A stretch of DNA of 64,000 nt. Source: Candidatus Uhrbacteria bacterium (GTDB taxonomy: Bacteria; Patescibacteriota; Patescibacteriia; UBA9934; GWF2-40-263). How positions within the stretch are numbered: the first letter of the stretch is position 1; each line of letters begins with the position of its first letter. The notes below the pieces were generated by a model. The model had not been told where the DNA came from. It searched no databases and saw nothing but the letters and a program-made list of their open reading frames with translations. Below, one piece after another: positions 1,333-42,111 of the stretch. The stretch is from NCBI GenBank assembly GCA_026395055.1, contig JAPLZK010000002.1, positions 128,154 through 192,153 on the forward strand, given 5' to 3'. A program made the position numbers and the translations under genes.

Positions 1333-1373
1333 CGATTTGTGAAAAGGGACGAGACATAGTCTCGTCGAGCGTT

Positions 1374-10600: not shown

Positions 10601-11536
10601 ATGGAAATACAAGATCTCATCATTATCGGTTCGGGTCCAGCAGGATACACGGCAGCAATTTACGCTGCGCGTGCAGAATTAAAACCTGTTTTATTTGAAG
10701 GACAGGTTGCAGGTGGTCAACCGGGTGGGCAACTCATGCTCACAACGGACGTTGAAAACTTTCCAGGATTCCCCGCAGGAATCATGGGGCCAGATCTCAT
10801 GGTTGAAATGAAAAAACAAGCAGAGCGATTTGGAACAAACATCATTCCAAAAGATGTTACGCGTGTAGATTTTTCCGTGCGACCATTCCTTGTTGTTTCT
10901 GGTGACGACGAATATCGCGCAAACAGCGTCATTATTTGTACGGGTGCACAAGCAAAGTGGCTTGGGGTTCCAGGGGAACAAACATTTCAAGGTCGCGGAG
11001 TTTCTGCCTGTGCAACCTGTGACGGATTTTTCTTCAAAGAAAAACAGGTCGTGGTTGTTGGTGGGGGAGATGCGGCATTGGAAGAAGCAAATTTTCTTAC
11101 GCGTTTTGCCTCAAAGCTCACACTTCTTGTTCGATCTGAAACATTACGTGCATCAAAGATCATGCAAGAACGTATGAAAGCAAATCCAAAAATTGAAATT
11201 TTGTGGAATACAGAAGTTGCAGAAGTGGTTGGAGATGTAAAGATGACAGGACTCAAATTAAAAAACAATAAAACAGGTGAGGTGTCGGATTTTGCTGCGG
11301 ATGGACTTTTCGTGGCGATTGGTCACAAGCCGAACACAGAATTGTTTCAAGGGCAGCTCGAACTCGACTCGGTTGGATATATCGTGACGCAACCACATTC
11401 AACGGCGACAAGTGTTGAGGGGGTGTATGCGGGAGGAGACGTTGCAGATCATGTGTACCGTCAAGCCATCAGTGCCGCGGGAACAGGATGTATGGCCGCG
11501 CTCGACGCAGAACGATTCCTAAGCCGAAACCACTAA
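10601..11536 (+). CDS. trxB: Thioredoxin-disulfide reductase
   Basis: Motifs GSGPAGYTAA, the redox CATC and GGGDAA. The start is likely MEIQDL at 10601. Confidence 0.9.
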   Translation: MEIQDLIIIGSGPAGYTAAIYAARAELKPVLFEGQVAGGQPGGQLMLTTDVENFPGFPAGIMGPDLMVEMKKQAERFGTNIIPKDVTRVDFSVRPFLVVSGDDEYRANSVIICTGAQAKWLGVPGEQTFQGRGVSACATCDGFFFKEKQVVVVGGGDAALEEANFLTRFASKLTLLVRSETLRASKIMQERMKANPKIEILWNTEVAEVVGDVKMTGLKLKNNKTGEVSDFAADGLFVAIGHKPNTELFQGQLELDSVGYIVTQPHSTATSVEGVYAGGDVADHVYRQAISAAGTGCMAALDAERFLSRNH

Positions 11537-28841: not shown

Positions 28842-30149
28842 ATGGAACAGATTGCAGAAATGGCTCATCGGATTCGCATTCACGATTTTACGTTTTGCGC
28901 GCAGCCAAACGCAGACGGGTTCTCGCTCGGAGAAATTCCTGGCATTGGTATGTACCCAGATCGTTCCGCCCTTCTTCAGGGAACATGTTTCCTGGATGGG
29001 GGATTGCATACAGATGTGGCAGAAGAACATCTTCATATGTATCTGCATCCGCTTGGAATTGGTGCGAAAGAAATTCGGTTCGTGAAAGGCGAATCGTTGT
29101 TCGAGGGGATTTTGAACGATCCGTTTGAACGCACTCGTCTGTGTCGCGAATTGTCGAATGGCGTTCCGACTACGCTTGAGGCGTTCTCTGCATCTGATGC
29201 GTGGGATCGATTTGTAGGAGCGCTCAACATTGATCCGTCTCGTTTGCGCACACCGGCAACGTCTGTGATGCGCACGCTCGATGACAAAGAAGCTATTCGT
29301 CGCCTCGCACACACGCTTGGTCTTGACGACGTGTTTCCGAAACACGTGTTTACCCTTGATGTGCACGAAACACTCGCGCGTATTCAAGAGTTTCGTGTTC
29401 AGTTCCCGCAACTGATTGTGGTGAAGCGCCCGGATTTGGAAAGTGGTGTTGGGCAATTGCTCATTGATCCGCAAACGTCCGAAGAACAGATTTTCGCCTA
29501 TGTGCGAGAGTACTGCACGGGACATCGTCCGATCATTGTGGAAGAAGGAGTGTTTGGCATCGAAGGTTCAGTTCAGTGGCACGTGAGTCCGCAAGGATTG
29601 GAATCAAGATTCTTTAGCCTGCAGTACACACACGCCGGAACACACCAAGGAAATGTGATTGCCCCTACGGGCGTGGCATGTCTTCCGGAAGATTGGCCGC
29701 TCGCATGGCGTGAGCGTGTCGTAGAAAAGATCTGGGCGACCACGGAAACATTTGTGAAGTGGGTCGCCGCTCGTGGGTTCATTGGTCCAATCGGATTCGA
29801 TTTCATCATGAACAAAAACGCATTCTCTCTTCTTGAGTGCAATGCGCGCACAACGGCCGCAACGTATCTTGAAAGTGTGCGTTGGCAGATTGAACGACAA
29901 GGACACGCAAACGTCACTGCCGCCATGAAGAACGCGTATCCAAAACGCGCACGCACATGGAAAGATTCTGTGCGCATGCTGGAACAACATTCGAACAACC
30001 TTGCGTTCAATGCAAAGACCGGTGTTGGGGTGATTGTCGCAAATCCGCGACTGTTTCATTTGGATTCTCCGAAGTGTTTGCTCATCTCTGCGGGTGCGGA
30101 CATTGCGCAAGCAGAGTCGTCTCTTGAACAAGCGCGAAAGATTCTCTGA
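28842..30149 (+). CDS. ATP-grasp superfamily amide-bond ligase with a pre-ATP-grasp N-terminal region (glutathionylspermidine-synthase-like family)
   Basis: C-terminal motif GPIGFDFIMNKNAFSLLECNARTTA matches the GSP-synthetase-type ATP-grasp core (E.N.R). Start at MEQIAEM. Immediately downstream of murI. Confidence 0.5.
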   Translation: MEQIAEMAHRIRIHDFTFCAQPNADGFSLGEIPGIGMYPDRSALLQGTCFLDGGLHTDVAEEHLHMYLHPLGIGAKEIRFVKGESLFEGILNDPFERTRLCRELSNGVPTTLEAFSASDAWDRFVGALNIDPSRLRTPATSVMRTLDDKEAIRRLAHTLGLDDVFPKHVFTLDVHETLARIQEFRVQFPQLIVVKRPDLESGVGQLLIDPQTSEEQIFAYVREYCTGHRPIIVEEGVFGIEGSVQWHVSPQGLESRFFSLQYTHAGTHQGNVIAPTGVACLPEDWPLAWRERVVEKIWATTETFVKWVAARGFIGPIGFDFIMNKNAFSLLECNARTTAATYLESVRWQIERQGHANVTAAMKNAYPKRARTWKDSVRMLEQHSNNLAFNAKTGVGVIVANPRLFHLDSPKCLLISAGADIAQAESSLEQARKIL

Positions 30150-30225
30150 TCCGTTTTCTGCGGATCTTTTTTTGTGGATAAGTACTTTACTTGACTAAAG
30201 TGCTTGGCTTTGATAGACTTTGTGT

Positions 30226-31288: not shown

Positions 31289-31296
31289 GTTCAACA

Positions 31297-31328
31297 AAAA
31301 ACCTCCCTGTGCATGTGCAGAGGGAGGC
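31297..31328 (-). terminator. Terminator for nadE (minus strand)
   Basis: Minus strand: cctccctctgcacatgcacagggagg followed by TTTTTT. Confidence 0.6.
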
Positions 31329-31334: not shown

Positions 31335-33323
31335 TTACAGGCTGAGCTCTTCGATCATGGCGAGGACTTCCTCGATCCAGAGCGTGAGCGTGACGTCCGC
31401 AGGCGCGCGCCAATCGCCGCGAGGGCTGAGCGAGACACTTGCAACCTTGGGGCAGTCCGGCAGGTTTTGCCGTTTGAATTGCGCGTTTGAGAACCGAGTC
31501 AGAAACGCGAGGAGCCATTTCAGAATCGTTACGCGATCATATTCGCCCGCGAACGTGAGTTCCGCGAGCCAGGCAATTTTCCGCGGTGCGTAACCGTTTC
31601 GGATCATGTGCCAGAGGAAAAAGTCATGCAGGATGTACGGACCAATGAGATCTTCGGTCAATTGTTCGATCTCACCAGCCTTCTTTGGCTTTGTGAGTTC
31701 GGGCGAGATGGGCGTAGCGAGCACATCAAGGATTGCCTTGCGGATTTCCTTGAAGAGCTCAATGTCCGCCGCATAGCGCACGAGATATTTCACGAGGGTC
31801 TTCGGGATGTCGCCATTGGGGTTGTACATCGACTGTTGATCGCCGTTGTACGTGCACCAACCTTGCGCAATCTCAGAGAGGTCCCCGGTGCCAATCACGA
31901 ACCCGAGGTCCATGAGAATGTGCGTGCGTTCACGCGCTTGGGCGTTTTCGCACTTGAGGCACGTCCAGCACGGCTCGTGTCCAATGCTTCGCAGATGCGT
32001 CGTCACATTTTTCACAATCGAGATGTCTTTCCAGGTGACACCCGTTTGCCGGATGAGCTTCAGCGCATTTTTCTTGGTGCGCTTCGATGTGCCAGCTCCT
32101 GGCATGGTCACAGCAAGGATGCCCTTGCGATCCCAACCGAGTTCATCGAACGCACGAAGAACGAAGAGAAACGCGAGGAGCGAATCGAGGCCGCCCGAGA
32201 TGCCAATGACGACATCGCGGCGACCGGTTCCTTTTTCGAAACTCATGAGCCGACGCTTGAGCGCGGTCACGACGTGAGCATAAATGTCTTCGCACCGTTC
32301 GGTGCGCTTTTTTTCATCCGACGGAACAAACGGGAGTTTGTTCAGGTTGATGCGAGGCGCGGCAGCGATTTTGTCATCGACCGACTCGATCGTACATTCG
32401 ATATGTCGAAACGTTTTCGGATCGACCATGGAGGTCTGACCGAAACTTCCGGACATGAATCGTTCGCGTTCGAGCTTCTCCACGTCCACATCCGTGATGA
32501 GGAGTTGAGGTTCGAACTGAAACGGCTTGGAGCGTATGCGCATGTGACCGTTTTCTGCGATCATCGCGTCGCCGTCAAAGATGACGTCGCCGGAAGATTC
32601 CCACGGACCAGACGAAACATACAGGTACGCGCTCATGCAGTGTGCGGCCTGTTGCGTCACGAGGTCGTAGCGATACGAGCCCTTTCCGATCTCGCTGTTT
32701 GAAGCAGAGAGATTCGTAAGAATCGTCGCGCCCGCGTTCGCTTGGTGCGAACTCGGGGGGATCGGCATCCAGAGATCTTCGCAGATCTCGGTGCCGAGGC
32801 AAAAGATGCGGCGTTTGTTCGAACCGGTTCCGACGAACACATCGATCACATGATCGGTGCCGAAGGGGACACGTTGTCCGCAGAGTTCCACTTCCGATAC
32901 GGTCGCTTCGTACCCAGGCCGAAACCATCGCCCTTCGTAGAAGTGTTTGTAGTTCGGAATGAACGTCTTTGGCGTGATGCAGAGGATTACGCCTTTGTGC
33001 ATCGTGACCGCAACGTTGAACAACTTCTGGTTCACGAGCAGCGGCATGCCGACTTGAATGATCATGTCTGCATCGGCCGTTGTTTTGAGTAGCAAGCTCA
33101 ATCCGTCGATCGCTTTCTCATGGAGAAACGGTTGCAAGAACAGATCGCCGCAGGTGTAGCCCGTGAGCGACAGTTCTGGGAATGTGAGGAGCTGAACATG
33201 TTGATACGCTGCTTCCCCGACAAGCTTCGCCATTTCAAAAACGTTCATGAGCGGATTGGTGACATGCACCATCGGCACAGCAACCGCTGTACGAACAAGT
33301 CCAAACGCATTCTTGGGTTTCAT
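31335..33323 (-). CDS. nadE: Glutamine-dependent NAD+ synthetase (CN-hydrolase plus NAD synthetase domains)
   Basis: N-terminal nitrilase/CN-hydrolase domain, C-terminal PP-loop SGGLDS, 662 aa. RBS aaggaga. Confidence 0.85.
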   Translation of the reverse strand: MKPKNAFGLVRTAVAVPMVHVTNPLMNVFEMAKLVGEAAYQHVQLLTFPELSLTGYTCGDLFLQPFLHEKAIDGLSLLLKTTADADMIIQVGMPLLVNQKLFNVAVTMHKGVILCITPKTFIPNYKHFYEGRWFRPGYEATVSEVELCGQRVPFGTDHVIDVFVGTGSNKRRIFCLGTEICEDLWMPIPPSSHQANAGATILTNLSASNSEIGKGSYRYDLVTQQAAHCMSAYLYVSSGPWESSGDVIFDGDAMIAENGHMRIRSKPFQFEPQLLITDVDVEKLERERFMSGSFGQTSMVDPKTFRHIECTIESVDDKIAAAPRINLNKLPFVPSDEKKRTERCEDIYAHVVTALKRRLMSFEKGTGRRDVVIGISGGLDSLLAFLFVLRAFDELGWDRKGILAVTMPGAGTSKRTKKNALKLIRQTGVTWKDISIVKNVTTHLRSIGHEPCWTCLKCENAQARERTHILMDLGFVIGTGDLSEIAQGWCTYNGDQQSMYNPNGDIPKTLVKYLVRYAADIELFKEIRKAILDVLATPISPELTKPKKAGEIEQLTEDLIGPYILHDFFLWHMIRNGYAPRKIAWLAELTFAGEYDRVTILKWLLAFLTRFSNAQFKRQNLPDCPKVASVSLSPRGDWRAPADVTLTLWIEEVLAMIEELSL

Positions 33324-33373
33324 AGTGTCTCCTTGTCTTCTCGGTTGTAGGGAGCAGAATCAATTCGTCTGAT

Positions 33374-33428
33374 CTTCACGCGCTGACACATGTCGGCGGG
33401 TGGAGAAAAGGGCGATGTAAACATCGCC
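33374..33428. promoter_or_regulatory. Conserved intergenic module, copy A
   Basis: Inverted repeat cttcacgcgctgaca-ca-tgtcggcgggtggag, then aaaag, then hairpin ggcgatgtaaacatcgcc. On the minus strand this reads as hairpin, CUUUUCUCC, then the inverted repeat, upstream of the nadE RBS. Confidence 0.6.
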
Positions 33429-33479
33429 AGATGTTGTAGGGACAGGTCGTGACCTGTCCGATCGAATACGATCATGGGT

Positions 33480-34427
33480 CTAGTACAGAATATCGCCGTT
33501 GTGATCCCAGTTGCGGTAACCGTGACCATCGGGCTTGTGCACGATCGACTTCATGACCGTGCCGCCGTTTGCTTCTTCACAACGCGCGAACGTAACGTTC
33601 ACGCCGTGCGACTTCTCATCGAAAATGCCACCGACCAGGAACACAGGTGTGCCCCAGGGGAGTGGATTGCCGATGCGGACACCGTGCAGTTTTTGCTCGC
33701 CAAATTCGGTGAACTCAGCTTGCAGAGGCGCGATGTCGATCCAGTTCTTTGCGTTCCAGTCCACGACTTCTTGCGTTGCGCGGCCAACCGACTCCGGCCG
33801 CCATACTTCACGAATCACCACCATCTGCACACCGAGATTGCCCAGCACTTTGATGTACTCGAGAATCCCCGCAGCATCTTTCACGCCCGACTTGTTGATG
33901 ACAAGTGATGCACGCACAAGGAGTCCGAGTTCACGACATCGTTTGATAAGATCGGCGGGCGATTTCTTGATCAACATGAGTCCACGATTCTGTTCGAAGT
34001 CGTGGCTTGCAATCGAGAGTGTGATCATGGTGAGACCATAGCTGACCAAAGTGTCGAGCAAATGCTCTTTTGGCATGCCTGCCTGAAAAAGAAATCCGTT
34101 CGTATGCATATCTACAAGCGGAAGATATTTCGCACATTCCGTCACAACGTTCACGAGGTATTCTGGCGATTCCTGACTCGGATCCGCGCGACCCGTGAGA
34201 ATTGCATGCGTCGCGCCTGTGCGCTCAGCGAACCGGAGTCCGACGCGCAGTCGGTGTAGTTCGCATGTCTTCACGTCTTTTTCGTTTTCCATTTCCGTCC
34301 CGGGTGTTGTGCGACTGATGCAGAATTTGCATCCAGCCGTGCAGCGTTCTCGTGTCGAAAGCTGAACGGAAATGCTTTGCGCGCGCATCTGTCCGGAGCC
34401 GTGGGCGATTTGCCGATGTTCTGTCAT
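33480..34427 (-). CDS. Radical SAM protein (activase-like family)
   Basis: CxxxCxxC motif (CTAGCKFC), LTGRADP (LTGGEP-like) and TNG motifs. The start is the second Met (RBS gaaggag), because the longer six-frame ORF reads through the upstream intergenic element. Confidence 0.7.
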   Translation of the reverse strand: MTEHRQIAHGSGQMRAQSISVQLSTRERCTAGCKFCISRTTPGTEMENEKDVKTCELHRLRVGLRFAERTGATHAILTGRADPSQESPEYLVNVVTECAKYLPLVDMHTNGFLFQAGMPKEHLLDTLVSYGLTMITLSIASHDFEQNRGLMLIKKSPADLIKRCRELGLLVRASLVINKSGVKDAAGILEYIKVLGNLGVQMVVIREVWRPESVGRATQEVVDWNAKNWIDIAPLQAEFTEFGEQKLHGVRIGNPLPWGTPVFLVGGIFDEKSHGVNVTFARCEEANGGTVMKSIVHKPDGHGYRNWDHNGDILY

Positions 34428-34445
34428 TTGAATGTACTCCTTCAC

Positions 34446-34501
34446 CTTCACACGTCGACGAAATTGTCGGCGGGTGGAGAAAAGAGGTGAGAGACTCACC
34501 T
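34446..34501. promoter_or_regulatory. Conserved intergenic module, copy B
   Basis: cttcacacgtcgac-gaaatt-gtcggcgggtggag, then aaaag, then hairpin aggtgagagactcacct. Confidence 0.6.
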
Positions 34502-34523
34502 GAGAGAGTTGAACGCTGGAAGA

Positions 34524-35159
34524 TTACATGCCCCCTGTATTCGGCCAGCGTGTTTTGGGCGCGGCTTTCAGACGGCGGATTTCTTCTTTCAGTCGCATGT
34601 TCTGAATGTACAAACGAAATGCGTAGACGCGCAGATCGACGCAGACGTAGGTGTCTGCAAGAAATTCTTCTTCGGACACCCAATGGCGGATGATCTCTTC
34701 GCCCTCACCTGCAAGGCCGAATGTATCGTCGTCATGACCGGAAAGTTGATCGATCGTGATCTGTGCGTAGCAAAGGTGCGTGCGTTCCGGAATGATTCCG
34801 ACCGAGAGCACCATACTCACACCATTGTTCAAAACGATGATGGATTCTTCTGGGATGGTTGCGCCGAGTTCTTCCGAACCTTCCGCGACACACAGTTGCT
34901 TTGGCGAAACGTTTCGATCGAACCGACCTGCGAATGGGGTGATGAGTTCACCGGTTGGGTTCTCATCTGTCTGCACCGCAATGTGTGGCGAGCGAATGAG
35001 AAGCACACGCTTGTTCACGACGTCGTGGAGAATTCCGGCGACCGAGTCTGTGCAACGTACGATGTACCAGGGATTGCCCGTGACGGGGTGTTCCCATTCT
35101 TCGAGTCGCAAGAATTTGTTTTCGTAAAGGACGCGAACGAATGTTGCGGGTTTGGACAT
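34524..35159 (-). CDS. NUDIX hydrolase, ADP-ribose pyrophosphatase-like
   Basis: NUDIX box AGRFDRNVSPKQLCVAEGSEELG aligns with the NudF-type GX5EX7REUXEEXGU motif. RBS aaggag. Confidence 0.6.
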   Translation of the reverse strand: MSKPATFVRVLYENKFLRLEEWEHPVTGNPWYIVRCTDSVAGILHDVVNKRVLLIRSPHIAVQTDENPTGELITPFAGRFDRNVSPKQLCVAEGSEELGATIPEESIIVLNNGVSMVLSVGIIPERTHLCYAQITIDQLSGHDDDTFGLAGEGEEIIRHWVSEEEFLADTYVCVDLRVYAFRLYIQNMRLKEEIRRLKAAPKTRWPNTGGM

Positions 35160-35177
35160 GTGAGGAACTCCTTCTGA

Positions 35178-35233
35178 TCTTCACGCGTCGATAAGATATC
35201 GGCGAGTGGAGAAAAGGCTCGAGCGTTTCGAGC
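35178..35233. promoter_or_regulatory. Conserved intergenic module, copy C
   Basis: cttcacgcgtcgata-ag-tatcggcgagtggag, then aaaag, then hairpin gctcgagcgtttcgagc. Confidence 0.6.
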
Positions 35234-35243
35234 AGGTGTTGTC

Positions 35244-36500
35244 CTAGACCTGGCACGTGACATTCACGTGTGTGTACCGATCATAGTTTGTGAGGCGCTT
35301 CACGCGCGTCACAGAGGATTTGCGTCCGGTCAGTTTCTTTCGGTTGTCCGAGAGTTTGACGGTCGCGCGTCCACAGATGTGCGTGAGCTTGCAGACAATC
35401 GAGAGGGCTTTCAGTCCACGATTGTTTTTATAGGATTGGAATCCCATGTTATTGCCGAGGTTCGTGCCCCAACCAAATGCGAGCTTGATGCGACCACGGA
35501 AGTGCGCGTTCAGTTTCACAATGAGTCGTGCATCGAGACCGTCCGAGAAGACAATCAATTTCGTTTTCGGATCGATGCCGATCGATTCGTAGTACGCGAT
35601 AACTTTCTCCCCGTACGCAAACGGGTCGCCGGAATCGTGACGTGTTCCGATCCACTTCTTTGCAAACGCTTCGAAGTGTTCAAGAAAGTAGTCAGAGCCG
35701 TACGTGTCCGAGAGTGCAATGGAAAGGATTGTGCCATAGAGGGCAAACCATTGTTCAAGGAGAAGTTCGTGCGAGTACATGTACCCGGCCGCGTCATCCT
35801 CTTTGTGGTAGATGCCTTGATACCCCATGTCCATTTCGTGGGCGATGGTGCCGATCGCATCGATACCGAGTTCGATCGCAATCCAAATGTTTGACGTGCC
35901 GGTAAACTGCGCGCCTATTTTTGCGGTGCAGGTTGCGGCAACTTCACGCTGCCATTCGTAACTCCAACGACGACGCGTGCTGAAATCGGAGACGATCGCG
36001 TCCGACTCCATCACAATCTCGATGTTCTCGATCAACTTGTCACGGCCAGAGGCGAGGACTTCTTCTTCGGTGAGACCAAGCTCTGTGCACTTCGCGCGGA
36101 AGTACAGGCGGTTGACCACGTTCATGATGAACGTTTCCCACATCGTGATTGCCGTCCACTTGCCCCGCGCATGAATGGCGAGCTTGCCCTTCACAACGCC
36201 GACATGAATATCGGAGAGCTTGTAGGATTTCAGCCACGTCAGAAATGCAGGCTGCAATTGCCGACCAAGTGTCGGATGATTCCGAAGGCGTTCGATCATC
36301 TCGTCCGTCATCGTCATCTGCTTGATGTGGTCGAGTTCTGCTTGGACTTGCTCGATCGTCATGAAGTCGAGCAGATTCACATCTGTCCGATTCTTGAACG
36401 TGAATCGTCCCCTCCGTTTGCGCTGATGGAGCCAGATGAACTGGAGCATCATCAGTTTGTACTTGTCTGTATCGAGTAAGTTTTTGACGATGTCGAACAT
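35244..36500 (-). CDS. pncB: Nicotinate phosphoribosyltransferase
   Basis: N-terminal LLDTDKYKLMMLQ motif characteristic of NAPRTase, with size (about 420 aa) consistent. Start at MFDIVKN with RBS aaggaga. Confidence 0.75.
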   Translation of the reverse strand: MFDIVKNLLDTDKYKLMMLQFIWLHQRKRRGRFTFKNRTDVNLLDFMTIEQVQAELDHIKQMTMTDEMIERLRNHPTLGRQLQPAFLTWLKSYKLSDIHVGVVKGKLAIHARGKWTAITMWETFIMNVVNRLYFRAKCTELGLTEEEVLASGRDKLIENIEIVMESDAIVSDFSTRRRWSYEWQREVAATCTAKIGAQFTGTSNIWIAIELGIDAIGTIAHEMDMGYQGIYHKEDDAAGYMYSHELLLEQWFALYGTILSIALSDTYGSDYFLEHFEAFAKKWIGTRHDSGDPFAYGEKVIAYYESIGIDPKTKLIVFSDGLDARLIVKLNAHFRGRIKLAFGWGTNLGNNMGFQSYKNNRGLKALSIVCKLTHICGRATVKLSDNRKKLTGRKSSVTRVKRLTNYDRYTHVNVTCQV

Positions 36501-36656
36501 CGTGTTCTCCTTGTGCAAAAAGGACAGACCCACGAACGTCTTTCGTTCGTGAGAGAAATGTGCCCTCGAGCGCACATGCGCTCGAGAAAACGTTTCTTGG
36601 TCTTTCGAGAAAAATATCCTCGGGGCTGAATGTTCAGCCCCGGGAAGAAGAAGGAA

Positions 36657-38045
36657 TTACAGTTCGCTGATGCGACGCTGCAAATCTGTTTCTGGAAAGA
36701 ACGCGAGTTCTGCGGTTGCGGTTGTGCTTCTGCGAATGGACATGGAGTTCAGTTCGCCGAGTGGAACGCCGTCGCAGAAACCACGCATCGGTCGCTTGTC
36801 TTTGCTCATCGCTTCGAATCGAATGTGTGTATCGATCGGAAGCGGTTCGTTTTTCCAGTGGTGGGAACATACGCAGCTTCCAACGAGTTGGAGCATCTGC
36901 GTGCCAGGAATGAGACGCGAGCCACCCATGCGGTATGCGTATCCTGTTGATCCAGCCGCAGTTGAAACGAGCATGACGTCTGACATGATGGGATCGAATT
37001 TCACTTCGCCATTCATGAGGACACGTGTCCAAATGGTTTGTCCGCTCAGGCGATCAACCCATGCGTCGTTGAACGCGAGCATGGATGCGTGTTCGCCTGT
37101 GACGGATTCTGCTTCCACGTAGAGCAGGGACTCTGTGTACGTTTTGAGTTCACGACACGCGCGGAGTTTTTCCACGATCGTCGCTTCGTCAAAGTCGTTG
37201 AGCAGAAATCCTTTTGTTCCTCGGTTGAGGCCGAAGAACGGAACGTGATCGCGCCAGAGGCGACGAATGGTGTGAAGCATGAAGCCGTCGCCGCCGATGA
37301 CGACAACGCAGTTGTGTTGTCCTGGATCTGTTTGAAACGCGGATGCGAGTTTTGCCGCAATGCTCACCGCGTTTGCGTTTTGATCATTCGCCACAATGAG
37401 TGGCTGCATGGGTTCCGCAAATTTTGCTGGTCCACGCAGAACGCGTCCTGTGAACAACTGGTGTCGTTCCATGAACGCCGCAACAGCTGGCGACACAAGA
37501 GTTTCGATTGATTGGTGCTTGAAGATCCGTTCGCGAATTTCCGAACTGGATCCACGAAGGGTTGGTTCGATGATCGTGTGGTGCGGCGGAAGATCTTCCG
37601 GCACACACTTCACTCCATAGCGCATGTGCACCATGAAATGCAACTCGTTCCAAACTTCCTGTCCACGAAACCACGTTCGATGAATTTCCGATTGACCACG
37701 CGCGCCGCCGGCAATGATGTCGGCGCCGATGACGTGGCAAATTTCGTGATTCGGATAGAGGGCACGATAACGCTGATCGATATCGTACGAACGGGTGAAC
37801 ACCGAATGCTCAAGATCCGTAAGATCAATTTCGACACGCGGAATGCGGCCGAACGCGAGATCACACAGGGCTGCGCGAAACGCGAGCGAAAGATCATTGG
37901 TCGTTTCTTTGTCCGGTCGTGGTCCACACGGAATGACGATGAGACGATCATCAGGACCGAGCCTGTTCGCAAGTTTGCGAATGATCGCTTCGTGATGTAA
38001 TCCCGGAGGGCAGAAACTTCCACCGTACAGAAAAATCGTTGGCAT
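36657..38045 (-). CDS. Bifunctional fusion: NaMN/NMN adenylyltransferase (NadD-like) plus NAD kinase (NadK)
   Basis: N-terminal GGSFCPPGLHH (cytidylyltransferase (H/T)xGH-type motif). C-terminal NAD kinase motifs GGDGFML and DVMLVSTAAGSTGYAYRMGGSRL. Start at MPTIFLYGG with RBS gaaggag. Confidence 0.7.
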   Translation of the reverse strand: MPTIFLYGGSFCPPGLHHEAIIRKLANRLGPDDRLIVIPCGPRPDKETTNDLSLAFRAALCDLAFGRIPRVEIDLTDLEHSVFTRSYDIDQRYRALYPNHEICHVIGADIIAGGARGQSEIHRTWFRGQEVWNELHFMVHMRYGVKCVPEDLPPHHTIIEPTLRGSSSEIRERIFKHQSIETLVSPAVAAFMERHQLFTGRVLRGPAKFAEPMQPLIVANDQNANAVSIAAKLASAFQTDPGQHNCVVVIGGDGFMLHTIRRLWRDHVPFFGLNRGTKGFLLNDFDEATIVEKLRACRELKTYTESLLYVEAESVTGEHASMLAFNDAWVDRLSGQTIWTRVLMNGEVKFDPIMSDVMLVSTAAGSTGYAYRMGGSRLIPGTQMLQLVGSCVCSHHWKNEPLPIDTHIRFEAMSKDKRPMRGFCDGVPLGELNSMSIRRSTTATAELAFFPETDLQRRISEL

Positions 38046-38060
38046 GGTGTACTCCTTCAG

Positions 38061-38120
38061 CTTCAGCGTCCCAGGAGTGGGGCGCTTAAGAAAAGGGCAG
38101 AGTTCGAGAACTCCGCGAGA
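38061..38120. promoter_or_regulatory. Degenerate copy D of the intergenic module
   Basis: cttcagcgtcccaggagtggggcgcttaagaaaaggg followed by hairpin gcagagttcgagaactccgc. On the minus strand this is a hairpin plus CCCUUUUCUU. Confidence 0.45.
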
Positions 38121-38133
38121 GAATGAACGAATC

Positions 38134-38904
38134 CTAGTTGCGTGCGATGAAGCCGAACGATTGCAGGGCTTGTCGCAGTTCAATCGGATCATCTTTGTTG
38201 ATGACGAACAGGTTGCCGGCGCTTGGCGTGAGCGTTCCTGCTTCGAGCTCGGCGGCAATCTCGTCCGCGGCACGACCGGATCCCTTGATCACGTACGTGG
38301 GCCAGCCGTTCTTGACCGAGCGCATGACTTCGTCGCGCGTGATTGGTCCGCCGTTCCATGCGATTACGCCGACCTGGTTGAATCCAGCATGTGCTTTCAG
38401 GTTGGACATGAGTTCGAAGGCAGCATTCAGATCGCCGTCCCAGTCGAGCTTGCCTTCTGCACCATCTTGCACAAGCAGAATGGCGTTCATGGCCGGATTC
38501 GGCGCAGTGCCGTAATCGTCGAGCGTCAGATGTGATTCGCCCGTGAGACGCAAGACGTCTGTACGCGGGGCGGAGCCGAGTGCAATGCATTCGGGATTTG
38601 ATGCCGCGATGAAACCGGGAATGTCTGTGACCATGGGGTCAAGAACAATGTCTTTGTCGAACTGACGCGTGCCACCCGACCAGATCATTCCCTTGAAGCC
38701 TTCGAGGGCCATCAGGAAAAAGCCGATCATGGCACGCTTGTCATCACTATTCATTCCTTTGCATCCGCCGCTGATGCGCAGACACACTTTCTCTCCCGCA
38801 CGCGTTGCCATGAGGGCGAACGTTGCGGGGATTTGATTGCGCTTGTCTTGCACGAGCAGGTAGGTCTTGCCGCCAGGCGCGGTCACGGTTCTTGCTGTTG
38901 TCAT
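38134..38904 (-). CDS. LOG/SLOG-like Rossmann-fold protein, paralog 1
   Basis: LOG-like glycine motifs SGGCKGM and WSGGTRQ (GGGxxG-like) and KGSGRAADE (PGGxGTxEE-like). Paralogous to the neighbouring 257-aa ORF. Confidence 0.5.
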   Translation of the reverse strand: MTTARTVTAPGGKTYLLVQDKRNQIPATFALMATRAGEKVCLRISGGCKGMNSDDKRAMIGFFLMALEGFKGMIWSGGTRQFDKDIVLDPMVTDIPGFIAASNPECIALGSAPRTDVLRLTGESHLTLDDYGTAPNPAMNAILLVQDGAEGKLDWDGDLNAAFELMSNLKAHAGFNQVGVIAWNGGPITRDEVMRSVKNGWPTYVIKGSGRAADEIAAELEAGTLTPSAGNLFVINKDDPIELRQALQSFGFIARN

Positions 38905-38931
38905 CACTGCCTTTACGAACTTCCTAATTTT

Positions 38932-39705
38932 CTACGCCTGTGATTTCACGAGACGCAGTTTCTCCGGGGGAAGGATCCCGAAAGAAATGAGATGTTGCCT
39001 GATGTCGTCAGAATCTTTTTCTGCGACACGGACGTTTGGGTGTGACTCGAGAAACGCCTTGTTGCTCGCATACACATCCGCGTTGCGACCGCTGCCCCTG
39101 ATGAGCAGAACTGGCCAACCGCGTTTTGCGGTTGCGAGGATCTCGCGTTCCGTCACACCACCGCCGTTGTAGACGATGAGCAGTGATTTGAAATCGGCGA
39201 ACTCACGCAGGTCTTTTATGATCTGCAGACATTCTTCGAACTCCGCGTCCCAAATGGCCGGCTGATCCGGCGACACTTGAACCAGCAGACACATATCTTG
39301 GTTTGGATGAATGATCGTACGGTAGGTATCGACGTCACTCTCCGAAACCACGAGTCCGTGTTCCGTGATCTTGATGTCAGAAGTTCTTGGAACGACTCCA
39401 AGGGAAACCATGTTCGGACAGACCTCGCGTATGTGCGACGGAATCTCAGTGATCCCGGGCACAATGTTCGACGCATCTTGTTTCTCGATCATGCGCGTGC
39501 CACCAAAGAGCATGGCGCCCGCAAATCCAGAGAACGCTTCTGCGAAGAGTGAAAGAAAATCTCGCGCATCTTCCGCAGACATGTATCCGCACCCGCCCGT
39601 GAGCCGTACAACAACTCGATTGCGAGCAGTCGTGAGTTTGAGGGCGATCTTTACCGACTGGTCTCCTTCGTTCTTCACGAATAAGGAGGGAATGATGGTA
39701 GACAT
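38932..39705 (-). CDS. LOG/SLOG-like Rossmann-fold protein, paralog 2
   Basis: Same architecture and length as paralog 1 (RLTGGCGYM, FGGTRM, RGSGRNAD). RBS aaggaga. Confidence 0.5.
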   Translation of the reverse strand: MSTIIPSLFVKNEGDQSVKIALKLTTARNRVVVRLTGGCGYMSAEDARDFLSLFAEAFSGFAGAMLFGGTRMIEKQDASNIVPGITEIPSHIREVCPNMVSLGVVPRTSDIKITEHGLVVSESDVDTYRTIIHPNQDMCLLVQVSPDQPAIWDAEFEECLQIIKDLREFADFKSLLIVYNGGGVTEREILATAKRGWPVLLIRGSGRNADVYASNKAFLESHPNVRVAEKDSDDIRQHLISFGILPPEKLRLVKSQA

Positions 39706-39726
39706 CGTGTCTCCTTGTGGTGTGAG

Positions 39727-39800
39727 CCTTCGATTTCAGAACCTCATTGTTGGGGTGCTGAAGAAAAGGGCTCTACATTTCGTTTTGCTGATTTGTATGT
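39727..39800. promoter_or_regulatory. Degenerate copy E of the intergenic module, also the pncA terminator region
   Basis: cttcgatttcagaacctcattgttggggtgctgaagaaaaggg followed by hairpin gctctacat...atggagagc. Confidence 0.45.
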
Positions 39801-39843
39801 GCAAGGTGAAATGGAGAGCGGGGGAGAGAAAGAGCGAATTGCC

Positions 39844-40602
39844 TTAGGTGTGGATCTGATCCGAGTTGATGCACTTCACGCCGCGAGCGATGAGGCGCGC
39901 TTCCATGAAGGCAATCGAGCCGGGGTAGTCGCCATCCGGAGGCAAACCAACGGAGCGCGTGCAGTCGCGGACGATGTAGGACTCGAAGCCTTCGAGTGCC
40001 GCGTCTTCGGCTGTGAAGCCAACGCAGAAGTCGAACGCGAGACCGACGATGAACACGCGCTTGATGCCGCGTTCCTTCAGGATGCGACCAAGACCAGTCG
40101 GCATCCAAAGCGTGTCGCGAAACGCGCTGTAGCTGTCGACGCGCGGATCCGTTCCCTTCGGGAAGTGCAGAATGAACGCGTCGTCGAGATCGCGCAGGCC
40201 GTCGAAGAGACGAATCTCGTTTGTGGTCATATCGGCATGTTCGTCCCAGAGGAGCGTTTCATGCCGATTGAGGCGCATGAGGTAGGCGATCAAATCTTCG
40301 CGGGTGAAGAGTGCATGCTTCGCAATCTTGACCTTGTTTTGCAGAACTTCCGTGATGGTGAGCGGACCGCGGGCCCGTTTCACGTAGGAGGTTCGGTAGT
40401 TGATGTGACCCCTCGGGTGCGCATCGAAGACGTTGAAACGTTGGCGGCGCTTGAACTTCAGAACGAGTTCCCGGAGGACCCCGATGATATCAAGCGCGCC
40501 AGGCACCGGCAGTCCACCATCTGGACCAAATGCATTTGTCGCATCAACGACGATGACCGCATCGCCTTTGCCGATCTTGATCAAACCTTCGAAATTCAGC
40601 AT
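39844..40602 (-). CDS. pncA: Nicotinamidase/pyrazinamidase (isochorismatase family)
   Basis: Isochorismatase-fold motifs VVDATNAF, FDAHP.GH and the catalytic Cys context GLAFDFCV. Confidence 0.7.
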   Translation of the reverse strand: MLNFEGLIKIGKGDAVIVVDATNAFGPDGGLPVPGALDIIGVLRELVLKFKRRQRFNVFDAHPRGHINYRTSYVKRARGPLTITEVLQNKVKIAKHALFTREDLIAYLMRLNRHETLLWDEHADMTTNEIRLFDGLRDLDDAFILHFPKGTDPRVDSYSAFRDTLWMPTGLGRILKERGIKRVFIVGLAFDFCVGFTAEDAALEGFESYIVRDCTRSVGLPPDGDYPGSIAFMEARLIARGVKCINSDQIHT

Positions 40603-40607
40603 GACTC

Positions 40608-40635
40608 ACCTCAATCCCCACGGTGGGGAGGTTCA
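40608..40635. repeat. G-rich palindromic mini-element at the pncA 5' end
   Basis: cctcaatcccca-cgg-tggggaggtt. May supply the SD on the minus strand (ggaggtgagtcATG). Confidence 0.5.
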
Positions 40636-40817
40636 ACGAACAGAATCTGCGGAAAACACTGTGTCATCTGCAGATGAATTCATTGAAAAAACGCTTTTTG
40701 AGAACCGGGGAGAATACCTGATTTTGGCCATTTTGTCAATGGTTTTCGGTTGGTTTACACGAACGAACCCTGAGCGGCCCTTTTCGAGGCTTTTTCGTTG
40801 GAAGGTGCTGTAAATTA

Positions 40818-40844
40818 AAGTAAGTGTAGACTATACACTTACTT
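40818..40844. promoter_or_regulatory. Perfect 11-bp-arm inverted repeat, candidate operator
   Basis: AAGTAAGTGTA-gacta-TACACTTACTT between the nrtR 3' end and the pncA upstream region. Shares the GTGTA...TACAC core with the palindrome at 41582-41596. Confidence 0.45.
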
Positions 40845-40854
40845 ATGTCAAGAC

Positions 40855-40897
40855 CCAATAAAAACGCACCAATCTTTCGATTTGGTGCGTTTGGTTT
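40855..40897. terminator. Bidirectional Rho-independent terminator (for nrtR on the minus strand)
   Basis: acgcaccaa-tctttcgat-ttggtgcgt flanked by A-runs and T-runs. Confidence 0.65.
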
Positions 40898-40908
40898 TGT
40901 CTCATTTG

Positions 40909-41574
40909 TTACATAATTTCCACGTATTCCAGCTTTCGGTGCTTGAACTTATAGAGCTCAGCGGGGCGGTTGGCTTCGCCGCCACGTTTCTTTCCAACAG
41001 GAACGATGAGATCCAGAGCCAAAATGCGCTTGCGGAAGTTGCGTTTATCTACGGTTGTATCAAGAATAATCTCGTAAACACGCTGTAAATCTGTGAGAGT
41101 GAATTCGTCAGGGAGCAAGCTCCAGGCGATGTTTGTGTATTGTAATCGGCTTTTGAGGCGCGTAATGGCTTCCTTGGCAATGATTTTGTGATCATAAGCC
41201 AATTCGGGAAGTTTTTTTACGGGCCACCATTTCACGTCCGCATACTTGTCTGACGTTTTGAGCTGAACGGTGTCAGAGATGAGGGCGAATGACGCAACGG
41301 AAATGACACGTTCTAATTGATCGCGATCAATTGCATCAAATGTTTTCAGTTGTTCAAGGTAGATATTTGAAACTCCTGTCTGTTCTTTTAAAATGCGAAT
41401 GGCGGTCTGTTCTGTGGTTTCTGCGTCCTCAACACGTCCGCCAGGGAAGGCCCAAAGTCCTGTGTAAGGTTTCTTTTTCATTTGGATGAGAAGTGCACAA
41501 AGTTGGTCATCTTTTACGGTAAAGATGACGGTATCAACCGCAACGACGATAGATTGTTTTGTGGATGGGGACAT
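40909..41574 (-). CDS. nrtR: NrtR-family transcriptional regulator (NUDIX-like domain plus C-terminal winged-helix)
   Basis: N-terminal NUDIX box (GGRVEDAETTEQTAIRILKEQTGV) and a C-terminal about 90-aa wHTH-like region. This architecture is diagnostic of NrtR regulators of NAD metabolism. Confidence 0.65.
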   Translation of the reverse strand: MSPSTKQSIVVAVDTVIFTVKDDQLCALLIQMKKKPYTGLWAFPGGRVEDAETTEQTAIRILKEQTGVSNIYLEQLKTFDAIDRDQLERVISVASFALISDTVQLKTSDKYADVKWWPVKKLPELAYDHKIIAKEAITRLKSRLQYTNIAWSLLPDEFTLTDLQRVYEIILDTTVDKRNFRKRILALDLIVPVGKKRGGEANRPAELYKFKHRKLEYVEIM

Positions 41575-41581
41575 AAGTGTT

Positions 41582-41596
41582 TGTGTAAATTACACA
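41582..41596. promoter_or_regulatory. 7-1-7 palindrome immediately upstream of the nrtR start, candidate autoregulatory operator
   Basis: TGTGTAA-a-TTACACA located 8-22 nt upstream of the nrtR ATG. Confidence 0.45.
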
Positions 41597-41697
41597 CAAA
41601 GTATCAGAGAATGAACGCTTCGTCAAGTTTACCTGCCGGCAGGTAGGTGGAAAAAAGCGCGCCTGAGACGTATACTGTGCGCACTAACTGAAATTGT

Positions 41698-42111
41698 ATG
41701 AAATACCGTCAGATTCTGAATCATCGTCCCGCAATGAAGTTTCGTTATGTTTTTTATACGCCTCTCGTTTTTTTTCAGTTCATCCCGATCGTGATTCTTG
41801 ACCTCTCTTTGGAGATTTACCATCAGATCGGATTTCGCCTCATGGGAATTCCTTGTCTAGACCGAAAAAATTTCATTCGCATGGATCGTCACAAGCTTTC
41901 GTATTTAACGTGGTATGAAAAAATTGGGTGTGCCTATTGCGGGTACGTAAACGGATGGTTTCGTTATGCGAGTGCAATCGCTGGTGAGACAGAAAAATAT
42001 TGGTGCGGAATCATGCATAAAAAATATAATGGATTCAAACCGCCAGAGCATCACGCAGACTATTTACCTTTTGGCGATGAAAAGGCGTTTGATGAATTTG
42101 TGAAGAAATAA
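41698..42111 (+). CDS. Hypothetical Cys-containing membrane protein
   Basis: 137 aa with an N-terminal hydrophobic segment and CAYCGY/WCG motifs. Confidence 0.45.
   Translation: MKYRQILNHRPAMKFRYVFYTPLVFFQFIPIVILDLSLEIYHQIGFRLMGIPCLDRKNFIRMDRHKLSYLTWYEKIGCAYCGYVNGWFRYASAIAGETEKYWCGIMHKKYNGFKPPEHHADYLPFGDEKAFDEFVKK

Follow-up and report, generated by a model that had tools for sequence, protein, structure and literature searches.

Two-hairpin units in the NAD genes

The window, a 64,000-nucleotide stretch of a Candidatus Uhrbacteria (Patescibacteria/CPR) chromosome, carries an island of NAD genes headed by nrtR. The host is a tiny groundwater bacterium, and NAD is the vitamin B3 cofactor. An NrtR-type operator, TAAGTGTATAGTCTACACTTA (GT-N7-AC; 40821-40841), overlaps the island promoter P1, the pncA promoter (40823-40851), and a second NrtR-type box lies at the nrtR promoter (41579-41599). 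After nadE, the island ends in a canonical intrinsic terminator (31295-31327, minus strand), CCUCCCUCUGCAcaUGCACAGGGAGG followed by UUUUUUG.

A two-hairpin RNA unit precedes almost every NAD-operon gene in this host and its relatives. Each unit consists of a short GC hairpin (HP1), directly followed by C(C)UUUUCU and then by an imperfect hairpin (HP2), at whose base the U-tract pairs with a purine tract adjoining, or within, the Shine-Dalgarno (SD) sequence. The earlier note had described five copies, A to E, on the minus (mRNA) strand, and all five were located there. For copy A, upstream of nadE, HP2 (33369-33410) is the imperfect hairpin CUUUUCUCCACCCGCCGACAuguGUCAGCGCGUGAAGAUCAG (56.9 bits, E 2.6e-9), and HP1 (33411-33428; GGCGAUGUuuACAUCGCC) directly abuts the U-tract in a terminator-like geometry; an extra hairpin lies near this HP1 at 33440-33459. 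For copy B, upstream of the radical SAM gene, the 3' base GAAGGUGAAG of HP2 (34440-34484; 66.7 bits) runs into the SD GAAGGAG, and HP1 (34485-34501) reads AGGUGAGucuCUCACCU. For copy C, upstream of the Nudix-like gene, HP2 (35170-35216; 56.1 bits) has at its base CCUUUU paired with AGAAGG of the SD, and HP1 is GCUCGaaacgCUCGAGC (35217-35233). Copy D precedes nadD-nadK; the base helix of its HP2 (38054-38096; CCUUUUCUUAAGCGCCCCAcuccUGGGACGCUGAAGCUGAAGG; 51.3 bits) covers the first SD nucleotides, and its HP1 (38097-38116; GCGGAGUUcucgAACUCUGC) is of a GCAGAG..CUCUGC type that is kept at the nadD-nadK junction in relatives. For copy E, upstream of SLOG paralog 2, HP2 (39727-39770; 47.7 bits) follows a long-range HP1 with a large loop, CUCUCCAUUUC..GAAAUGUAGAG (39771-39818). 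Rather than being degenerate, as had been proposed, copies D and E are distinct subtypes in the same register and are conserved in orthologous loci.

Moreover, the count of five was too low. The window holds at least eight units, namely these five, a variant upstream of the NAPRTase gene, one after nadA and one in the nadA leader, the last three also on the minus strand. Variant F (36528-36644), in the gap from nadDK to NAPRTase, comprises a terminator-like hairpin (36618-36644) followed by AUAUUUUUCU, a hairpin F1 (core 36560-36591) with arms of ~21 nt and reversed purine/U-tract polarity, and a hairpin F2 (36528-36559), AUUUCUCU-CACGAACG..CGUUCGUG-GGU. This variant is kept in loci L001, L002, L012, L013, L016 and L019. 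Copy G (1303-1366; z = -7.7) is not part of the island; nadA (1374-2525) and an uncharacterised 238-aa ORF (573-1289) flank it. Its HP1 (1348-1366) is GACGAGACuauGUCUCGUC, and its HP2 (1303-1347; CCUUUUCACAAAUCGUUGA..UCAACGAUUUGUUCCAAAGG) extends into the SD. The nadA leader, 30 kb from the island, carries an HP2-type hairpin without HP1 (2533-2579; z = -3.3), whose base CCUUUCU pairs with AGAAGG of the SD; the nadA promoter, TTGACA-17-TACATT (2598-2626), is upstream of it. Additionally, the pncA leader forms a hairpin on the minus strand (40631-40692) with a U-tract and then ~25-nt arms, a distinct conserved structure that may be only loosely related to the module.

Covariation, distribution and sequence constraint

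A strict pattern gave 2 matches against 0 expected, and 6 of 7 units (HP1 plus HP2, or HP2) fold with z = -2.7 to -7.7 relative to dinucleotide shuffles. As the earlier note had suggested, a covariance model was built, here from 32 copies; scanned over 301 kb, it returned 35 matches at E <= 0.003, all on the sense strand and all in NAD-operon gaps. Paired cells amount to 78%, versus 64% in shuffles, with double-sided changes at 11 of 15 pairs. Compensatory cells number 54 against 16.6 expected, a value reached in 0 of 500 shuffles (slid controls, 2-29). Of the 8 pairs predicted independently by RNAalifold, 7 show compensatory changes. In the orthologous series of copy D, for example, CCCA/UGGG is followed by CUCA/UGGG and then CUCA/UGAG, passing through G.U on the mRNA strand. 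The module is a selected secondary structure with covarying stems, as had been claimed, and the further compensatory copies that this claim called for occur both elsewhere in the genome and in relatives.

Beyond the window, ~70 units occur in the NAD operons of 13 further Patescibacteria loci (GC 43-63%), all pointing the same way as their genes. The same architecture, with unrelated sequences, is present in loci L018 and L020-L024 (GC 43-63%). The covariance-model scan found no units in ~215 kb of non-NAD sequence, and no Rfam family matched the element even at E <= 10. Judged from sequence, this is a conserved mRNA element not described to date.

An imperfect palindrome between genes might also act at the DNA level, as an operator of NrtR, which the earlier note had considered, or of another transcription factor, or as a mobile palindrome or recombination site (REP/BIME, MITE, integron attC). 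Identical HP1 hairpins are found at different junctions in different genomes, and island gene content varies, each new gene bringing a module, in line with such an element. We nevertheless regard this explanation as very improbable. NrtR binds 21-bp palindromic operators that have a GT-N7-AC core (PMC2330246), and the genuine boxes are at the pncA and nrtR promoters, not in the modules, so that an NrtR site was rejected as the module's identity. A fixed dimer-binding palindrome was likewise rejected: the arm-core spacing (CGCCGAC / GTCGRCG) varies over 4-6 nt within the A-C subtype and the predicted terminal loops over 3-7 nt among all copies, which excludes a dimer site of fixed spacing. Furthermore, the compensatory changes keep pairing rather than half-site sequence, GTTRRRY/RYYYAAC cores are not visible in the copies, and the copies occupy orthologous positions across deep lineages, in NAD operons only. 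In the gene calls of the loci compared, neither integrase nor transposase was noted.

HP1 is short, near-perfect, GC-rich and fast-evolving. It abuts the U-tract at nearly every junction, sometimes with the stop codon inside it. Each copy is headed by a GC hairpin and U-tract in terminator geometry. Such an arrangement would suit a weak intrinsic attenuator or a hairpin protecting a 3' end. The island and its neighbours end in canonical terminators with T6-T8 runs; in contrast to the long U-run at the island end, the modules have CUUUUCU. Only three U's (CUUUCC) follow HP1 in L020, L021 and L023, and real intrinsic termination is therefore unlikely there.

HP2 is nearly constant in length, at ~20 helical steps; in 52 copies, the interquartile ranges are 19-20 nt for the 5' arm and 19-21 nt for the 3' arm. 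The hairpin is thus longer than the 14-15-bp arms first described, with arms of 19-20 nt including the U-tract. Its free energy is approximately -11 to -25 kcal/mol, with many 1x1 mismatches; the 53 C.A mismatches in 50 copies point to selected weak points, not drift. The 3' base overlaps or abuts the SD in about half of the copies, at 1-17 nt from the start codon, and in about half the purine tract forms the 5' part of the SD. About half, however, have an HP2 that stops 21-64 nt short of the start codon, so that SD masking is not universal.

These features could reflect hard-wired tuning without any trans-factor or processing, HP2 being a metastable zipper (fourU/ROSE-like) that lowers translation initiation and HP1 only stabilising or attenuating. 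UUUU pairs with GAAGG/AAAGG of the SD in copies B, C, D and G, in the nadA leader and in most copies of L018, L020 and L021, and the many mismatches would hold the free energy in the above range. However, such a passive model predicts neither the constant 19-20 nt arm nor the restriction to NAD genes, and the untouched SD of about half the copies also makes it rather unlikely.

The U-tract columns are invariant in the alignment, and HP2 identity is 84-100% (mean 93%), compared with 45-76% at the four-fold sites of the flanking genes. Across lineages, only the nucleotides of the U and purine tracts are conserved; a single genome carries completely different stems in A-C, D, E, G and the nadA leader. 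These observations bear on a small-molecule riboswitch, which would be the third class related to NAD and in which HP2 would serve at once as aptamer and as expression platform. The exclusively NAD gene context would suit it, as would the RBS sequestered in part of the copies, as in the NAD+-II (pnuC motif) riboswitch (PMC7749635). However, beyond the two tracts there are no cross-lineage conserved nucleotides, the loops vary, and the mismatch positions are not universal, since the C.A of column 12-41 is U-A in copies D and E and the Y.Y of column 16-37 is C-G in copy D. Together with the lack of Rfam matches, this leaves a riboswitch highly improbable.

Strand of action

The earlier note had left the acting strand open, a legitimate question as copies A, B, C, E and G fold more stably on the plus (antisense) strand (for copy A, -35.5 kcal/mol on plus versus -24.6 on sense), and over all copies the antisense fold is more stable in 33 of 50. 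It had also described two asymmetric T-versus-C positions in HP2, both U-G compatible on the plus strand. Only one is indeed C.A, becoming G.U on plus. At the second, two pyrimidines face each other (C.C, C.U or U.C), which leaves it unpaired whichever strand is folded; a further C.A lies at the junction with the base helix. The wobble evidence from HP2 is thus ambiguous.

If the plus strand were functional, as an antisense RNA or a single-stranded DNA hairpin, its greater stability and the conversion of sense C.A mismatches into G.U would be accounted for. Against this stand 76 sense-strand G.U pairs that become A.C on the other strand, and a clear sense-strand wobble signature in HP1, which has 22 G.U pairs and 1 C.A mismatch on the sense strand versus 10 C.A or A.C mismatches on the antisense strand. 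Moreover, every copy is co-oriented with its gene, and the base helix, SD overlap and terminator-like geometry exist on the mRNA strand only. The island promoter search revealed no promoter-like site for antisense transcription. Collectively, context and HP1 favour the mRNA as the acting strand, and a functional plus strand appears quite improbable.

A proposed model of operon punctuation and comparison with known systems

The module is most likely, as far as its sequence tells, a punctuation or leader element of the sense-strand mRNA, combining a 3' stabiliser or weak attenuator with a double-stranded RNA operator of ruler length. Specifically, we propose, with a probability of roughly 0.4, cis-acting operon punctuation in which leaders closed by HP2 are matured by a nuclease. 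HP1 would belong to the upstream cistron and HP2, which also stands alone in the nadA 5' leader, to the downstream cistron, where it would keep the leader closed. A double-strand-specific or structure-guided endonuclease would then mature the polycistronic RNA, with a candidate RNase III-type cut in HP2 or an RNase Y cut in the breathing U-tract. An RNase Y gene is present (5407-7035), and no rnc gene was seen in the sequence examined. After the cut, HP1 would remain as a protective 3' end, whereas the apical hairpin would become the 5' end and the SD would be freed. HP2 would thus be an operator acting via processing and/or SD masking; the efficiency of termination, any cutting, the identity of the nuclease and the translational effect are inferred. 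The expression of each cistron would be set post-transcriptionally, downstream of a single NrtR-controlled promoter, and the element probably sets the amount of each NAD enzyme made.

Against the punctuation model stand the confinement of the element to NAD genes, for which a general nuclease alone would not account, the copies that leave the SD free, the three-U tracts of L020, L021 and L023, the more stable antisense folds and the rnc gene that was not seen. Confinement to NAD genes, found at two unlinked loci of the window and in a nadA operon of another lineage, would be expected if HP2 were the operator of an NAD-responsive factor acting in trans. This dedicated factor, an RNA-binding protein or else a small RNA pairing with the invariant CCUUUUCU strand, would open or close the helix at every NAD cistron at once. 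The invariant U-tract and the strong conservation of HP2 agree with such a regulon-specific riboregulator, and the constant length suits a shape-reading protein. However, no candidate RNA-binding gene common to all islands was found, the neighbouring unknown proteins have no informative matches, and an sRNA-like AGAAAAGG locus is absent from the window outside the modules themselves. Because the stems differ completely within one genome, the readable features would be only the shape and the U/purine base. We consider this explanation possible but doubtful.

Compared with known systems, the module shares its regulon with the NrtR operator, but that is a DNA palindrome at promoters, whereas the module is a ~45-nt structure of variable loop length. 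REPs are dispersed genome-wide, are associated with RAYT transposases, and can stabilise upstream mRNA or attenuate transcription. Similar to REP/BIME elements, the modules are imperfect GC-rich palindromes, often paired, within operons; in contrast, they are limited to orthologous positions in NAD operons. Like the NAD+-I (nadA motif) and NAD+-II riboswitches, they precede genes of NAD biosynthesis or salvage, but they match neither Rfam model, lack a conserved core, form a single hairpin without pseudoknot or tandem domains, and sit at internal junctions. In the Bacillus pyr operon, PyrR-dependent attenuators occur in the leader and at internal junctions. The module is likewise one RNA element repeated in the leader and internal junctions of a single-pathway operon, beside terminator hairpins; the order is reversed, however, with the terminator-like hairpin first and the conserved hairpin second, and no antiterminator alternative can be drawn. 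We know of no binding protein for the NAD module.

In fourU/ROSE RNA thermometers, a U run pairs with the SD in an imperfect hairpin weakened by mismatches, and of the two hairpins in the intercistronic gap of Yersinia lcrF, the second is the thermometer. HP2 resembles both in these respects, but only about half of its copies touch the SD, its length is constant at ~20 bp, and it is specific to NAD genes; to our knowledge, the module has no link to temperature. RNase III sites between the early genes of phages T7 and SP82 are hairpins that recur from one intercistronic gap to the next, span about two helical turns and contain internal loops; they punctuate polycistronic RNA and leave a protective 3' hairpin. 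The module shares this recurrence and build. It differs in its cellular metabolic operon, in the separate GC hairpin before each site, in the U-tract/purine helix touching the SD, and in having a nuclease that is a candidate only. Finally, in E. coli rpsO-pnp, the partial Rho-independent terminator T1 after the upstream cistron permits read-through, and the following long leader hairpin, cut by RNase III, governs the stability and translation of the downstream cistron (PMC5029454). In contrast to rpsO-pnp, the two hairpins of the module adjoin directly and have the U-tract in common, one operon carries the unit at up to ~10 junctions, the unit contains no sigma-70-like promoter, the only island promoters being upstream of pncA, and its cleavage is a proposal; in both systems, a terminator-like hairpin after the upstream cistron is followed by a stem-loop in the downstream leader.

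Anatomy of the intergenic units

The NAD island lies on the minus strand from 41574 to 31335, in the gene order nrtR, isochorismatase, two SLOG genes, nadD-nadK, NAPRTase, Nudix-like, radical-SAM and NAD synthetase. The nrtR product comprises Nudix and NrtR winged-helix domains, nadD-nadK is a fused gene, the Nudix-like protein is divergent, and the NAD synthetase (nadE) is glutamine-dependent. Sigma-70-like promoters (40851-40823 and 40739-40711, minus strand) were found upstream of the first enzyme gene only, the nicotinamidase-like pncA, and a canonical terminator with a U6 run closes the island 3' of nadE.

The five-gap module described in the earlier note was confirmed. Upstream of nadE, the radical-SAM gene, the Nudix-like gene, nadD-nadK and the second SLOG paralog (copies A to E, respectively), each gap presents a short GC hairpin (HP1), a C(C)UUUUCU tract, an imperfect inverted repeat (HP2) and a ribosome-binding site, in the same order on the mRNA strand. 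A strict pattern gave 2 matches against 0 expected, and fuzzy searches recovered the three close copies (A-C) at these sites only. On the mRNA strand, six of seven HP1+HP2 (or HP2) units fold well below their dinucleotide shuffles, with z from -2.7 to -7.7. Copies D and E had been taken for degenerate; instead, they keep the register of A-C with different stems, and each subtype is retained at the orthologous junction of relatives.

In the minimum-free-energy folds, the inverted repeat is lengthened downwards by base pairs between the U-tract and purines 3' of the repeat (GAAGG, AAAGG, GGAAGA or AUAAAAG). Among 52 HP2 copies of all lineages, the interquartile range is 19-20 nt for the 5' arm and 19-21 nt for the 3' arm; these hairpins have 14-21 bp, loops of 3-7 nt and 1x1 mismatches at subtype-specific positions. 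The HP1 stem ranges from 5 to 14 bp. Out of 65 junctions, about 55 have HP1 directly against the U-tract, and several HP1 hairpins take in the stop codon that ends the preceding gene. Moreover, HP1 of copies A-D and the hairpin of F, a variant in the gap between nadD-nadK and NAPRTase, pass a terminator-like scan for a GC-rich stem-loop directly before a U-rich tract. The tract after HP1 is CUUUUCU in the window and CUUUCC in L020, L021 and L023, while the operon-end terminators of the same loci carry T5-T8. In RNA thermometers of the fourU type, a U-run pairs with the Shine-Dalgarno (SD) sequence inside a hairpin that can melt. Here such pairing of the U-run is predicted in roughly half of the copies, among them B, C, D and two elements of the nadA locus (copy G and the nadA leader); the remainder stop 21-64 nt upstream of the start codon. 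The claim that both asymmetric positions of the repeat are T-versus-C proved half right: one is C.A, as claimed, and alternates with C-G, but the other is pyrimidine.pyrimidine. In a 32-copy alignment, the mismatches of the A-C type are C.A at the base-helix junction (26/32), pyrimidine.pyrimidine (23/32) and C.A alternating with C-G (11/32).

Several further features of the island were observed. The MoaA-like radical-SAM protein (33480-34445, minus strand; about 320 aa) recurs as a conserved component of NAD operons in Patescibacteria, with homologues in L012-L023; it has 150 homologues at E <= 1e-20 and no equivalog assignment. The tandem SLOG (LSDAT_prok) paralogs (38134-38907 and 38932-39705, minus strand) lie within the operon, and some relatives (L013, L002) have none or one. 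Because SLOG domains bind nucleotides or ADP-ribose, these paralogs may be sensors or processing enzymes for a ligand derived from NAD. The nadD-nadK fusion has full-length homologues of 40-41% identity in Luteolibacter and Akkermansiaceae MAGs (L004 and L005, Verrucomicrobiota; match 10001-11368) and is thus not limited to Patescibacteria. A separate long hairpin is conserved in the pncA leader (40631-40692, minus strand); in it, a U-run precedes arms of about 25 nt, and the apical GCGGAAAACACAGGGUUUCCCGC is kept in relatives. A second hairpin of this leader (40609-40631, minus strand), CCUCCCCACcgUGGGGAUUGAGG, covers the SD. On the 5' side of the nrtR -35 box, CUUUUUUCCAC leads into the perfect palindrome CCTACCTGCCGGCAGGTA (41627-41657, minus strand); the first 15 nt of this site resemble the module start, and in L001 the CTTTTTTCCACCCGC part occurs with no palindrome.

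Conservation and covariation in relatives

To compare the units between genomes, orthologous islands were fetched via the nadD-nadK protein and via radical-SAM homologues and their contigs. The two-hairpin unit is present in nearly every intercistronic gap of these islands. In close relatives (L001, L002, L012, L013, L015, L016 and L019), the unit sequences are recognisably alike. In L018, L020, L021, L022 and L023 (GC 43-63%, radical-SAM identity 53-68%), the stem sequences are unrelated and the architecture is kept; L020 by itself contributes nine units, built as HP1-CUUUCCACGAG..CUCGUGCCAAAGGAG. Only the U-tract and the purine tract are common to the window-type, L018 and L020-L024 copies, and the mismatch positions are subtype-specific. 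In riboswitches of any class, the ligand is bound by a core of nucleotides that lineages share, and a small-molecule aptamer is therefore unlikely.

Covariation was counted over a 15-pair helix in the 32-copy alignment with 500 shuffles. Paired cells amount to 78%, against 64% after shuffling, and 11 of the 15 pairs have changed on both sides. There are 54 compensatory cells where 16.6 are expected, a count reached in 0 of 500 shuffles, and controls with a slid partner gave 2-29. Independently, RNAalifold recovered 8 of the 15 helix pairs, 7 of them with compensatory changes. The orthologues of copy D form a classical compensatory path, from CCCA/UGGG in the window through CUCA/UGGG in L002 to CUCA/UGAG in L001. 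Both analyses thus bear out the selected secondary structure, with compensatory changes, that the earlier note had proposed. A MAFFT alignment of 42 diverse copies (A3) mixed the registers.

Furthermore, HP2 is under constraint: counted with its loops, it keeps 84-100% identity (mean about 93%) in pairs of relatives that keep 45-76% at four-fold degenerate sites, a comparison that leaves out L001 for both genes and L013 for nadE. HP1 changes fast in evolution. The GGCGATGTTTACATCGCC HP1 (window 33411-33428) stands between the radical-SAM gene and nadE in the window and L001, and between the Nudix-like and radical-SAM genes in L012; similarly, the GCTCGAAACGYTCGAGC HP1 (window 35217-35233) stands between NAPRTase and the Nudix-like gene in the window and between the radical-SAM gene and nadE in L015. 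Such identical hairpins at different junctions of different genomes suggest gene conversion or shuffling between modules. A repeat of CCCTACAAC at copy A, considered as a target-site duplication, is missing from orthologous loci. Another small palindromic insertion, CCCTCTCC(C/T)TCGAAGGGAGAGGG, sometimes flanked by CCCCAACCC, occurs in the relatives' intergenic gaps (L001 9935-9990 and 11455-11505; the nadD-nadK to NAPRTase and NAPRTase to Nudix gaps of L013; L016 2385-2440). The window lacks this insertion, which has the look of a miniature mobile hairpin element.

These comparisons also bear on readings of the module as a DNA site. The conserved arm cores of the A-C subtype, CGCCGAC and GTCGRCG, lie 4-6 nt apart, and this spacing, together with the covarying pairs, rules out a fixed-spacing DNA palindrome. 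An internal promoter was rejected: it would lack compensatory changes, no module contains a sigma-70-like site, the interval from HP2 to the SD is too short for one, and reading by eye shows no -10-like hexamer. The cassette sites of integrons (attC) are likewise imperfect palindromes, flanked by R''/R' cores RYYYAAC and GTTRRRY in an array beside intI. The modules are flanked by CUCCAC and GUGAAG with no GTT core, and their genes form a single conserved, syntenic pathway, so an attC site was rejected. The NrtR operator, found at promoters, is a 21-bp palindrome that has a GT-N7-AC core and half-sites at a fixed distance (PMC2330246). The modules have no GT-N7-AC symmetry; boxes fitting the consensus are found instead at 40821-40841, overlapping the promoter at 40851-40823, and at 41579-41599. 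The suggestion that the module is an NrtR site thus fails on motif and spacing.

Association with NAD genes and functional strand

Further copies with compensatory changes were found in the NAD operons of relatives and elsewhere in the genome. A covariance model, as suggested in the earlier note, gave 35 matches at E <= 0.003 in 301 kb, all 35 on the sense strand and all 35 in NAD-operon gaps; the next-best matches are weak and fall on the antisense strand of these palindromes. In about 215 kb of non-NAD sequence at E <= 10, nothing was found, antisense echoes aside, beyond two chance-level matches (E 4.5 and 9.6). When the upstream regions of all 63 window genes were scanned with a structural descriptor, HP2-like hairpins appeared at 6 of 11 NAD-locus genes and at 3 of 52 others, the latter doubtful. 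This enrichment is taken from the tighter upstream scan; a loose HP1+HP2 descriptor over all loci gave 182 matches, mostly intragenic, and exposed the nadA copy. REP/BIME or MITE elements occur in many copies spread through a genome in unrelated contexts, and the two scans (covariance model and upstream regions) rule out a dispersed repeat of this kind in the sequence covered.

The sequence-independent descriptor found a complete unit, copy G (1303-1366, minus strand), in the gap between nadA (quinolinate synthase) and the following ORF, 30 kb off the island. In addition, an HP2 without HP1 sits in the nadA 5' leader (2533-2579, minus strand), just downstream of a TTGACA-17-TACATT promoter. 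In another lineage, the nadA-GFO-Nudix operon of L024 has two units with 19-nt arms. The distant nadD-nadK loci L003-L006 have no window-type copies, and the tightly packed nadA locus L025 has no module. Collectively, the copies at nadA and in L024 and the upstream-region scan indicate that the element is tied to NAD genes rather than to one locus. The second NAD locus itself (573-2626, minus strand) consists of nadA and an uncharacterised 238-aa ORF, and no NrtR box was seen at its promoter. Divergent from nadA is a DAO/Mqo-type FAD oxidoreductase (2796-4115, plus strand), which may act like aspartate oxidase. The locus may be a lineage-specific acquisition, since the closest NadA homologues are just 68% identical.

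Regarding the strand, folding favours the plus strand for copies A, B, C, E and G, and the antisense fold is the more stable in 33 of 50 copies. Over 50 copies of HP2, the sense strand shows 76 G.U pairs alongside 53 C(5').A(3') mismatches, and this wobble evidence is ambiguous. For HP1, the sense strand has 22 G.U and 1 C.A and the antisense fold 10 C.A or A.C mismatches, the signature of a sense-strand RNA. Every copy is co-oriented with its genes, and the base helix, the SD overlap and the terminator-like geometry exist on the mRNA only. Because of these features and the HP1 signature, the functional strand is very probably that of the mRNA. We further conclude that the C.A mismatches of HP2, about fifty times commoner there than in HP1, are selected weak points and not drift.

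Known RNAs and other origins were also considered. None of the 4227 Rfam families, including the nadA/NAD+-I and pnuC/NAD+-II motifs, matched the window at gathering thresholds, and a known RNA family was rejected. At E <= 10 over 33000-42000, there were seven weak matches, of which one lay on a module part, a miRNA-precursor model scoring 21.7 bits against a gathering threshold of 90 (39770-39819, plus strand) under the long hairpin of copy E. A trans-acting sRNA with a AGAAAAGG seed in the window was rejected, the sole matches being antisense of the modules themselves. A pseudoknot between loop and start codon in copy B was discarded, the complementarity being kept in neither the window nor L001. 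A phage origin was dismissed, as the window has no megablast match to phage records and is Candidatus Uhrbacteria chromosome. No published description of the NAD-gene element was found in the literature searched. The data strongly support the view that these structured mRNA elements form a genuine family in the NAD operons of Patescibacteria, apparently one not described before.

Proposed role and known parallels

The most likely role that we infer for the unit is operon punctuation. HP1 with its short U-tract would serve as a weak attenuator, a protective 3' hairpin for the upstream cistron, or both. HP2 is assigned to the leader of the downstream cistron because it also stands alone in the nadA leader; it would form a metastable duplex of ruler length in which the U-rich linker is buried, together with the 5' half of the SD in roughly one copy out of two. 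Cleavage within HP2 or at its breathing base would split the RNA into cistrons, with HP1 remaining at the 3' end and the SD exposed. RNase III-type enzymes recognise largely duplex RNA of about two helical turns (about 20 bp), in which internal loops are common, and HP2 is of this substrate size, with arms of about 20 nt, 14-21 bp and 1x1 mismatches. No rnc gene was seen in the 64-kb window. RNase Y cuts beside hairpins, and a gene for it with RNase_Y_N, KH and HD domains lies at 5407-7035 on the minus strand, so that this enzyme is a candidate for mRNA processing guided by structure.

The usual design between co-directional genes here is a compact pair of terminator and promoter, and the NAD modules contrast with it; at an ordinary junction outside the NAD loci (30148-30219, plus strand), a canonical terminator with a T7 run and a TTGACT-17-TAGACT promoter fit within 70 nt. 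Punctuation has two weaknesses. Efficient intrinsic termination usually requires a long uninterrupted U-run, and the U-tract in several lineages is probably too short for it. Moreover, punctuation leaves the restriction to NAD genes unexplained. In the main rival account, a factor specific to this element would respond to NAD and recognise HP2 by its shape; no candidate gene for such a factor was found. In a broader reading, HP2 would be a new kind of regulon-wide riboregulator, a shape-defined operator of about 20 bp before every cistron of Patescibacteria NAD operons. Through it, one NAD-status factor (a protein, an sRNA or protonation of the conserved C.A mismatches) would set post-transcriptional control cistron by cistron in bacteria whose regulatory repertoire is minimal; we regard this as rather unlikely.

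With about 70 instances, strong covariation, fixed length and occurrence at NAD genes only, the element is a well-defined candidate cis-regulatory RNA family, ready for a covariance-model survey. To our knowledge, very few regulatory RNAs have been described from Patescibacteria (CPR), which are not yet cultivable alone and whose dependent lifestyle has NAD supply at its centre. The element offers a concrete handle on differential expression within a long operon that a single NrtR promoter serves. Even if it is merely punctuation by general RNases, it would represent an unusually regular natural architecture of terminator plus processing site. Similar to the units, RNase III sites lie between the early genes of phages T7 and SP82. 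The nearest documented parallel is E. coli rpsO-pnp, in which a read-through terminator is followed by a leader hairpin cut by RNase III (PMC5029454).
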